Below, piece after piece: positions 12,001 to 15,000 of a stretch of 38,749 nt of DNA. Every line of letters starts with the position of its first letter. Position 1 is the stretch's first letter. Position numbers: made by a program. The stretch comes from Candidatus Woesearchaeota archaeon (GTDB taxonomy: Archaea > Nanobdellota > Nanobdellia > Woesearchaeales > DATGWN01). The stretch spans positions 1-38,749 of the forward strand of contig JBLKOU010000006.1 of assembly GCA_047603125.1 (NCBI GenBank), read 5' to 3'.

Positions 12001-15000
12001 GAAATTCTCAAAAAACTTCCGGACAACCTCATAAGTCAGGCGGTTTTTGAAGGAGCAAACATTGTCTTATATACTAAGGATGAGCAGTTTTACATAAATG
12101 AACAACAAAAAATTAAAGATATTGTTAATACGATAAAAAAACGAATTGAGCTGCGCCCCGATCCTGATGTCTGCATGAATCAAGAAAAAGCAAAAGACAT
12201 TATTACAAAACTCATGCCTGATGATGCAGAGCATGGAAATATCATTTTTGATCCAAGAAGAAGTATTGTTATCATTGAATCTGAAAAGCCTGGCCAGATT
12301 GTAGGAAAATCAAAAGGAATTTTACAACAAATTAGAGAACAGACACTTTGGGTGCCGACAATTCGACGAACGCCAATTATACGAAGTCAGATTACTGAAG
12401 ATATTCGAAGTGTTTTGTATGAGAACTCGGACGAGCGACGAAAATTCTTGCATAAAACTGGTGAACGAATTTACAATGGGTGGATTCGTGGAAAAAAAGA
12501 AGGATGGATTCGCATGAGTTATCTAGGAAGTGGTCGCCAAGTTGGACGAAGTTGTTTATTATTACAAACAAATGAATCGCGTATTTTACTTGATTGCGGT
12601 GTTGATCCTTCAGGAACAGAGGATGCTTATCCAATGCTTGAAGCGCCAGAATTTAAATTAGAAGATATTGATGCAATCATTGTCTCACACGCACATTTAG
12701 ATCATGTTGGTTTTTTACCCTATCTCTTTAAGTTTGGATATAGGGGTCCTGTATATTGTACGGAACCAACGCGGGACATTATGGCACTTTCATTAATAGA
12801 TTATGTGAAAATTCAAAATATGGAAAATGAAAAACCACTCTTTTCTATGGATGACATTCGTGAATTGATAAAACATACTATTTCATTAAATTATGAGGAA
12901 GTAACTGATATTACGCCCGATGTACGTATTACACTTCATAACGCGGGGCATATTTTAGGTTCTGCGGTGACACATCTTCATGTAGGCAATGGTCTTCATA
13001 ATATCGTGTATACGGCAGATATTAAGTATGGAAAAACACGACTACTTGATCCTGCAATTAATAAATTTACACGCTGTGAAACGATGCTTGTAGAAGCAAC
13101 ATATGGTGGAAAGACAAATTCGCTTCCAGGAAGGGAAGAAGCAGAACAGGAGTTTGCAGATATTATTAAACACACTGTTGAGCAGAAAAAAGGAAAAGTG
13201 CTCGTTCCAGTCTTAGGTGTAGGGCGTGCACAAGAAATTATGCTTATTTTAGAAAACCTTGTTCGTGAAGGGAAACTACAAGAAATCCCGGTTTATATCG
13301 ATGGGATGGTCTGGGATATGACTGCGATTCATACGGCATACCCTGAATACTTAAATGCGCAGGTTCGAAAACAAATTTTTCAAAAAGATACGAATCCATT
13401 CTTGCATACAATGTTTAAGCGTGTCGGTTCTTACAAAGAACGAATGGATTTAATTCAAAATGAAGGTCCTTGTGTTATCCTTGCAACGAGTGGTATGCTT
13501 GTAGGTGGTGCATCAGTTCAGTATTTCAAACATTTAGCTGAAGATAAAAAGCACAGTCTTGTATTTGTTTCCTATCAGGGTGAAGGTTCACTTGGTCGAC
13601 GTGTTCAACGCGGTGAAAAAATCATTACGGTGGCAAGTGGTGGTTCTAAACCAGAGCAGCTTGATATTAAAATGGAGCTGTTTACGTTAGATGCATTTAC
13701 AGGACACAGTGACCGAACAGAATTGATGAATTATATTAAACGATGTAATCCTATGCCTCGACGTGTACTCACAAATCACGGAGAAATTACGCGGTGTTTG
13801 GATTTAGCAGCAAGCATACATAGGAGTTATCGTATAGAAACAATGGCGCCAAAGAATCTGGATGCTGTTCGTTTGCGCTGATTGCTTAGGTTTTTGTGAT
13901 GATTCTTGTATTTACGTAAGCAATAGTGTTTATTGAGAGTTTCGCGGGTATAATACCTCGGACTTTTGTTATTACAAAATTCTCACACATTTTCACAACG
14001 GATTTGTGTAAAAAATTGAAATTTTATTTTACAGCAATATTACGATTGATTCGGACTCGCGTATCTTGCCGACGAGGCGCTGCATATTTTCGGATTTTCA
14101 TCCTCAAGTTTGAAAGAAGCTTTCAAGCAATCGCGCCATGTCGTAATAGTGCATCAAGGTAATATTGCTTATTTTTTTTAATTTACACAAACCTTTTCAC
14201 AACGGCTTCATCCAATAATTGTTTTCAAAAAAGAGCACGCAGATTTTGCTCAAGAGTCCCGCTTTGAGAAGTATGCGAAAATTTAGTTGCAGACAATCAC
14301 TAAATTCTCTGATTTTACTGCAAGGTGCTCTTTTTTCTTATTTATTGGATGAAGCCTTTCACAACCAAACATTTATAAACCCCTAATAAATCACACATAT
14401 AATTATGAATTTTTATGAACTTGGATTATCAGATTCTATCTGTCAAAAATTAGAACAATACAACATCACCGAACCAACGCGTATACAAGAGCAAGTTATC
14501 TCTCAAGTATTAAAAGGAAGGGACATACTTGCCCAATCAGCAACAGGTTCGGGTAAAACAATTGCATTTGGTGGGCCGATCATTGATATGATTGGAACAA
14601 ATAAACAACCAATGCAAGCACTTATTTTAGCTCCGACAAGAGAACTTGCCGAACAAATTAAACAGAGTTTGCAAACATTAACCAAAATTCCTATTTGTAC
14701 AGTTTATGGCGGTGTAGGATATCAACCACAAATTGATGGATTACGACGCTCGCCAATTGTTGTTGCAACGCCAGGTCGATTTATTGACTTGCTTGAGCAA
14801 GGACATGTGCAAACTGAAAATTTAAAGCAATTTGTTTTAGATGAAGCGGACCGTATGCTTGACATGGGTTTTTTTCCAGACATTGAGAAAATTATATCAT
14901 ATTTGCCTGAGAAAAAATTTCAAGCGATGTGTTTTTCAGCAACATACCCTCCTCAGATTACTGGATTAACAAAGAAAATTCTCACAGAACCATTCTCTGC

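Follow-up and report, generated by a model that had tools for sequence, protein, structure and literature searches.

The closest precedents for DNA transposons that settle at a fixed distance from a promoter are bacterial: according to the accessible part of one report (PMC3942029), the insertion point of TnGBS, the ISLre2 family and the ISKra4 group lies 15-17 bp ahead of the -35 box of sigma-A promoters, a contact with the initiation complex being proposed by analogy with Ty3. The same text states that ISKra4-group elements with near-perfect ends use both orientations and mentions, for the archaeal ISH6, only an AT-rich duplicated motif. In yeast, Ty3 integrates precisely beside the TBP-containing TFIIIB, and a contact between intasome and TBP has been visualized by cryo-EM (bioRxiv 10.1101/2021.07.27.453949, available portion). 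Insertions of IS5 upstream of glpFK or bgl in E. coli are described, in the excerpts available, as locus-specific activating events, and one ISH3 insertion upstream of gvpA is reported to block transcription (PMC4390858, in the portion available). The accessible sections of a MITE review and of a survey of 183,232 genomes (PMC10969869, PMC11602168) make no mention of an offset from the TATA box, and targeted searches of the openly readable literature, a scope outside which the older archaeal IS surveys lie, found no description of insertions at a constant offset from promoters of archaea.

The locus described here belongs to a stretch of 38,749 nucleotides (the window) from a 1.1 Mb Candidatus Woesearchaeota assembly; the window contains genes of a proteasome subunit, FttA and EF-1 alpha, which mark the host as an archaeon. 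At the promoter of a DEAD-box helicase gene there lie, from left to right, a MITE of family B, a MITE of family A, the predicted BRE/TATA and the ATG; the two MITEs are different, yet they sit on one target (window 13991-14365) and are accompanied by the same 9-bp duplication in three copies (Table 1). The octamer TTTATAAA at 14372-14379 is found 15 nt, and the helicase ATG at 14405 is found 48 nt, past the right end of the family-A copy, which has an identical twin elsewhere in this assembly (G000, C33:34445-34597). A family-A right-end remnant is likewise stacked behind the family-B copy at 27704-27901.

Table 1. Elements, duplications and promoter features in the window; offsets such as +15 are nucleotides from the element end to the TATA box
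Feature	Position	Strand	Remarks
Degenerate family-A copy	8900..9055	-	left end unmapped; right side without promoter at +15
Family-K remnant, internally deleted	13933..13972	+	repeat of another kind
9-bp target duplication, third copy	13991..13999	+	
Family-B MITE, 195 bp	14000..14194	+	other ends but same core design; stacked on same target as the family-A copy
9-bp target duplication TTTCACAAC, middle copy	14195..14203	+	between the two stacked elements
Family-A MITE, short form	14204..14356	+	153 bp, inverted ends
Left terminal inverted repeat, family A	14204..14219	+	16/16 match to the ends of the full IS5-like elements L176/L177
Structured core: stem P1, AAG bulge, stem P2, two inner hairpins	14230..14333	+	common to ~nine end types
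Right terminal inverted repeat, family A	14341..14356	+	
9-bp target duplication TTTCACAAC, promoter-side copy	14357..14365	+	overlaps the start of the BRE by its final base
Predicted BRE (14365-14371) and TATA box (14372-14379)	14365..14379	+	13.6 bits with the genome's own promoter matrix; predicted from sequence
DEAD-box helicase gene served by that predicted promoter	14405..15637	+	
Family-A copy, long form	24943..25137	-	duplication 8/9; TATA-like octamer at +15
Family-B copy	27704..27901	-	exact 9-bp duplication (27902-27910, 27695-27703); TATA-like octamer at +15
Family-A copy, internally deleted	31627..31742	-	TATA at +14 by the end call used

In the whole assembly the catalogue of family A comprises 62 entries, the number given in a preliminary description of this DNA, but these are distributed over 36-37 contigs and not over 45; that description also overlooked the family-B element stacked at 14000-14194. 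The elements are short (149-199 bp), contain no gene and have inverted ends that extend to ~16 bp, beyond the 12 nt originally assigned to them; as had been described, they form two size classes (149-154 and 190-199 bp) set apart by a block of 41-42 nt. An interpretation of the optional 41-nt block as a protein tail was rejected, the block folding as two hairpins with its variation in the loops. Among lengths of 4-11 bp the target duplication is of 9 bp only, being retained exactly in nine of the 31 copies with both ends mapped, none of which has an exact duplication of 4-8 or 10-11 bp; the four 9-bp duplications quoted previously are all present. Inverted ends, 9-bp duplication, lack of a transposase gene and ends matching those of full elements bear out the assignment to the MITEs, and the copies do lie between genes, only one of the 52 with both ends placed touching a gene call, by 19 nt. 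One copy (C1:39771-40047) sits at +15 of a tRNA-Arg promoter, tRNA promoters being targets as well. The epithet "recently active" suits only part of the family: two identical copies on different contigs point to a recent move, but the median pairwise identity of 29 full copies is 87%, so that most copies are old. In contigs of four DNA runs the repeat reaches a depth many times that of single-copy sequence, hence it is no assembly artefact; a joint skipping the element (empty allele) was not found among these contigs, which drop rare variants.

The ends had been placed 44-50 bp before start codons, and a peak at 44/45 indeed exists, the first ATG from the promoter-side end of 31 family-A and family-B ends being at 44 nt in five cases and at 45 nt in 14, with single occurrences between 38 and 59 and none found in four. 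The fixed reference and real landmark of insertion, however, is the TATA box and not the start codon; the 44-46 nt to the start result from an offset of 15 nt plus the ~30 nt from TATA to ATG. The promoters were predicted by a matrix trained on 691 upstream regions of simple gene calls made in this analysis, which places TATA 29-31 nt before the ATG. BRE+TATA scoring at least 8 bits occurs at offset 15 in 25 of 82 mapped family-A ends, which upholds the earlier observation of a TATA-like octamer at this distance, and at any other offset in two ends at most; the intergenic background is 0.2%. Of the 62 entries taken together, 28 have the motif at precisely this offset (at least 6 bits), four are off by one, three are displaced by younger elements, three are unexplained and 24 are unjudgeable on both sides.

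The preliminary description had itself raised the concern that purifying selection enriches insertions near promoters. A selection-only null was run in which the elements were removed and every junction outside genes and core promoters was allowed (~101,000 junctions); offset 15 accounts for 0.27% of all allowed junctions and for 3.4% of the promoter-linked ones, as against 25 of 37 promoter-linked ends observed for family A (p ~3e-28), while for family F, at offset 13, 12 of 15 were observed (p ~1e-15). The null fails to explain the one-base spike, and the proposed tie between insertion and core promoter thus stands, with single-base precision and far above what purifying selection would lead one to expect. 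The signal is one-sided: a promoter on both sides was found in 0/30 family-A and 0/15 family-F copies, and the far flank shows no mirror motif. The promoter-facing end is the right one in 23 and the left one in eight cases in families A and B, the corresponding numbers being 10 and 8 in families F and I. Convergent spacers represent 2 of the 99 occupied spacers versus 11% of spacer length. In the 9-bp and 3-bp families alike the flank carries the genome-wide BRE, with its C at -7 and its A at -3, at one and the same place relative to TATA, so that a cut at 13 nt and a cut at 15 nt do not differ in the placement of the host BRE. The distance from the element end to BRE and TATA is 6-23 bp, which the transposase itself could possibly span. 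Family K of the same genome yields no offset spike, and many of its copies lie inside other elements.

The behavior is general to several families and not peculiar to family A, the structured-core elements of this genome (see below) falling into ~nine end types. Family B (9-bp duplication) is at +15 or +16 in 5/13 ends; family F, whose 3-bp duplication is exact in 15/15 and whose median identity is 96%, is at +13 in 12/32 ends, and family I in 5/22. Family H (8-bp duplication) is at +13 in 2/7 ends, with a target centre at ~-9.5 derived from these two ends only. Full ISH3-like elements (5-bp duplication) across the order are at +14 in 8 of 25 end matches, some of the 25 being loose, and two ISH3-type ends in G001 have TATA-like octamers, identified by eye, at +15 to +17 and not at +14. 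The offset tracks the length of the duplication, being 15 nt with 9 bp, 14 nt with 5 bp (ISH3-like) and 13 nt with 3 bp, and the target centre lies 11, 12 and 12 bp, respectively, before the first T of TATA. The existence of a fixed spot about one DNA turn upstream of promoters suggests that the elements are steered by the host transcription-start machinery.

The stacks agree with the predicted spacing, a 3-bp-type element starting 5 nt after a family-A end in three cases and a family-H element 8 nt after a family-F end in one stack; one duplication is present in three copies both in the window stack and in L375, and further stacks are found at C1:20807, C11:132, C25:29353, C33:33177, C45:2357 and window 27704-27921. 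The position of the insertions, their one-sidedness, the dependence on duplication length, the use of the site by several lineages and the re-use of a promoter are all directly seen in these data. Family K, which by its look we take to be an IS200/IS605-type element, has ~22 copies (e.g., window 13933-13972 and C21:2180-2362) lacking terminal repeats and mostly inserted after a TTA-type motif, often within the right end of other MITEs. Another element (L429:927-2182, i.e., C4:9612-10867) has an intact gene for a 333-aa DDE transposase and 18-bp inverted ends of another type; it is located between convergent genes resembling pilus assembly genes and has no target duplication, so that not every element complies.

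As to the enzyme that mobilizes family A, considered unknown in the preliminary description, no full element with family-A ends is in fact contained in this assembly, but IS5-like elements with the same ends occur in related genomes. Of the 121 loci that a metagenome scan with the family-A right end returned, many are chance matches, but one, L099, has family-A ends around a 316-aa DDE gene and measures 1174 bp; matching ends are carried by the full elements L099 and L174-L178, with all 16 bases shared in L176/L177. It is because the ends are identical that the MITE is paired with the IS5-like transposase, by which family A is probably moved in trans. In L175 the 9-bp duplication is exact and CTTAAAAG lies at +15; among five close full-length relatives, several of whose flanks are missing, it alone has a TATA-like octamer at this position. 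L099 has neither a duplication nor a TATA at +15; it adjoins what looks like a fragment of a bacterial sliding-clamp gene and may reside in a bacterial host or be a chimera. A motif like TAGCGATAGCT directly follows the transposase stop in L024, L027, L035, L040, L047, L052, L175, L176 and L177; occurring in core-less ISH3-like as well as in IS5-like elements, it may represent a further 3' module common to both.

The partner transposase has relatives, which their sources label as Woesearchaeota or Nanoarchaeota. Ones with 65-76% identity were found in 5 of 301 genomes of the order and weaker ones in 73 of 301; these tallies include G140, which is counted only in order-wide tallies, its locus L185 being excluded from all flank analyses. 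The best model is NF033579 (IS5), with 88-110 bits under a curated cut-off of 140, a cut-off cleared by the distant relative L193 (156 bits), which is also at +15; within IS5 we take the group to be IS903/ISC1058-like. In keeping with an RNase H fold of the DDE_Tnp_1 type, residues D128, D200 and E260 of the DDE triad are invariant in 76 rows, PF01609 is matched, and the model of the protein (pLDDT 87) has DDE transposases as its nearest, weakly matching, solved folds; no relative of solved structure was found by sequence and no obvious extra domain was seen. A Mutator-type partner was rejected, PF00872 being matched in 0/4 genomes of the family.

Promoter-adjacent targeting is real, strong and general within this archaeal order. 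At ends bearing the family-A repeat the +15 spike (6 bits) recurs in 9/29 cases in G278, 10/28 in G058, 6/18 in G007 and 5/17 in the others, and 11 of 13 metagenome MITEs with a duplication are at +15, three of these being the same sites as in G058. Of 29 distant IS5-like loci only those with clear ends were used, followed by multi-copy elements with alignment-defined ends: at 4 bits all seven identical copies in G227 and all four near-identical copies in G166 comply, and in G306, a member of another order, 2/9 copies do so. A single copy, L420, has TATA at +15 on both sides. A haloarchaeal ISH3-like element (L207-L217, 11 loci) has instead a symmetric GC-rich target consensus on both flanks, which extends ~6 bp beyond the 5-bp duplication on each side, and TATA at 0/20 ends; this symmetric pattern has the look of an intrinsic sequence preference, unlike that of the promoter-adjacent elements.

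Stems P1 and P2, the AAG bulge, a variable hairpin and a long one whose loop is conserved make up the core, and they persist while the stems change. A structure descriptor finds 103 cores in the genome versus 0-12 for eight control bulges. In the core alignment 92% of the cells are paired, compared with ~40% when the structure is slid, changes on both sides are seen in 22/25 pairs, and 0/500 shuffles reach as high a covariation score; the set comprises 23 chosen short forms, which are related sequences from which the structure itself was drawn, and part of the covariation could stem from hairpin self-correction. No covariation for a pseudoknot was seen. The covariance model recovers 117 copies here and finds the core in 7/10 genomes of the family and in 4/150 other genomes of the order. 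In G007 and G005 an ISH3-like transposase gene and the core share sequence at the 3' end of the gene; core copies that overlap such genes lie at L021:1152-1259 and L022:1152-1258, both on the minus strand. The ISH3-like product has NF033541 as best model, its 95-108 bits lying below the cut-off of 225. Rfam gave no match near threshold in the window stretch and no match at E<=1 among 13 cores; ribozyme, snoRNA and riboswitch were accordingly discarded, the order of hammerhead parts being absent by eye. Optional hairpin blocks slot into the loops of the core, and a chimera at C69:8777 joins an A core to a B right end. Core copies without clear terminal repeats (L274; L277 in G087; L276 in G155; L260; L267 in G008) may be old elements, or else the module in free-standing form. 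Remnants of an ISH3-like transposase are found at contig ends (C58:2-271, C48:3497-3726, C42:4907-5035), and a full copy may be unassembled.

We regard it as likely that the MITE is moved in trans by an IS5-like transposase and that its site is set by a promoter occupied by TBP/TFB, with which contact is presumed. The transposase would recognize the ends of the MITE and cut the target with a 9-bp stagger, the transposition complex being captured on the DNA just upstream of bound TBP/TFB, so as to put the target centre 11-12 bp (one helical turn) ahead of the first T of TATA. Capture might take place through a protein contact or through the bent, histone-free DNA made by the bound factors; one TBP gene and one TFB gene are present in these genomes, as are histone genes, so that either is possible. 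The promoter would be left whole, which would keep the cost of insertion low in a compact genome, and later elements would land at the same spot, older ones being pushed upstream. The dependence of the site on bound TBP/TFB is deduced from sequence data. Prediction of a complex of TBP, TFB core and IS5-like transposase from one host gave a score of 0.00 and a mark of 0.32, which speaks neither for nor against contact, and a ChIP-exo border of the initiation complex 12-14 bp upstream of TATA was dropped as support, because the accessible part of PMC8448881 measures it from the start site. Since several unrelated lineages use the same centre, a docking site made by the host seems likelier than one special targeting domain. 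A wider reading, which we offer tentatively and hold to be possible though short of probable, is that in these small-genome archaea the TBP/TFB-bound promoter is a general docking site on which unrelated DDE transposases converged: IS5-like, ISH3-like and at least two more end types would contact the basal factors and insert one turn upstream of TATA, and the core would be an uncatalogued structured RNA or single-stranded DNA module swapped within the host family and needed in cis for spread.

The main rival of docking on bound factors is a direct read-out of BRE/TATA sequence or shape by one transposase subunit, no host factor being involved. The motif is near enough to the insertion point for this, docking on a host protein is something that we infer, and the excess of right ends facing the promoter in families A and B (23 versus 8) indicates that the complex can be asymmetric; nevertheless we judge direct read-out unlikely, for three or more lineages of transposases or ends would each have had to arrive at the same read-out, the host BRE in the flank keeps its place with respect to TATA and not with respect to the cut, and a related transposase with a clear sequence preference is symmetric on both flanks, a symmetry that these elements do not have.

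Guidance by the shared structured core, acting as RNA or single-stranded DNA, can look attractive insofar as ~nine end types in the genome have both core and target in common, paired changes are frequent (22/25) and, in two genomes, an ISH3-like transposase gene runs at its 3' end into the core. We nonetheless give it very little credence, given that core-less metagenome MITEs with family-A ends and core-less ISH3-like elements of other host families hit the same site, while the model detects the core in only four of the 150 other genomes of the order. The core is not required for targeting; our guess is that it helps a copy to spread or insulates the promoter. Least credible of all, and already contradicted, is random insertion followed by purifying selection that keeps copies upstream of promoters: all copies are intergenic, the genome is ~84% coding by the gene calls made here and genic insertions are surely removed, but with ~101,000 junctions allowed and 0.27% of them at offset 15, selection can produce neither the one-base spike nor a duplication-dependent offset, neither empty convergent spacers nor 11/11 matches among near-identical young copies.

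The analysis contributes a named partner, an offset rule, the stacks, the contrast with the haloarchaeal element and a core common to several end types. Insertion beside promoters shows a rule of transposon persistence in very compact archaeal genomes, in which the upstream edge of the core promoter is a shared safe harbour reached by several unrelated enzymes. The steering of prokaryotic transposases by the initiation complex, long proposed and unproven, becomes directly testable. In uncultured archaea the insertions mark promoters at base precision (by a loose match, an element end lies immediately ahead of 55 of the 370 predicted promoters), and a 315-aa transposase landing beside promoters could become a tool.

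Compared with known systems, the elements resemble TnGBS, ISLre2 and ISKra4 (p-MULT 3/4) in being DDE elements that insert at a defined distance ahead of a promoter element. Family A works like these without being a member, PF00872 being absent from all four genomes; they are bacterial and Mutator-like, whereas here a BRE/TATA promoter is the target, the enzymes are IS5-like and ISH3-like and several lineages use one site, in both orientations, unlike the fixed orientation, right end at the promoter, that typifies the bacterial group apart from the ISKra4-group elements with near-perfect ends. The IS5 family and the Sulfolobus elements SM1-SM4 (PMC10969869, accessible sections) share with family A the GGC-type ends, the 9-bp duplication and the high-copy intergenic MITEs, and the partner has, as in the IS5 family, a single DDE gene of ~315 aa; a fixed promoter offset is not described in those sections, and the partner scores 88-110 versus 140 bits. 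The core-carrying L021 and L022 have the CAGTA-type ends and short duplication of the ISH3 family, from which they differ in their score (95-108 versus 225 bits), the haloarchaeal relative, moreover, targeting a symmetric sequence; the ISH3 insertion that blocks gvpA is the opposite of the harmless docking proposed here. The parallel with Ty3 drawn in the preliminary description is fair, although the bacterial elements are the closer precedent: in both cases integration is precise and adjoins the position of TBP at the promoter, the contact being in our case presumed, but Ty3 is an LTR retrotransposon of Pol III genes, while these are DNA transposons that insert upstream of the BRE at protein-coding and tRNA promoters. 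Should the promoter prove to be the general docking site that we tentatively propose, these elements would be an archaeal counterpart of Ty3 targeting.
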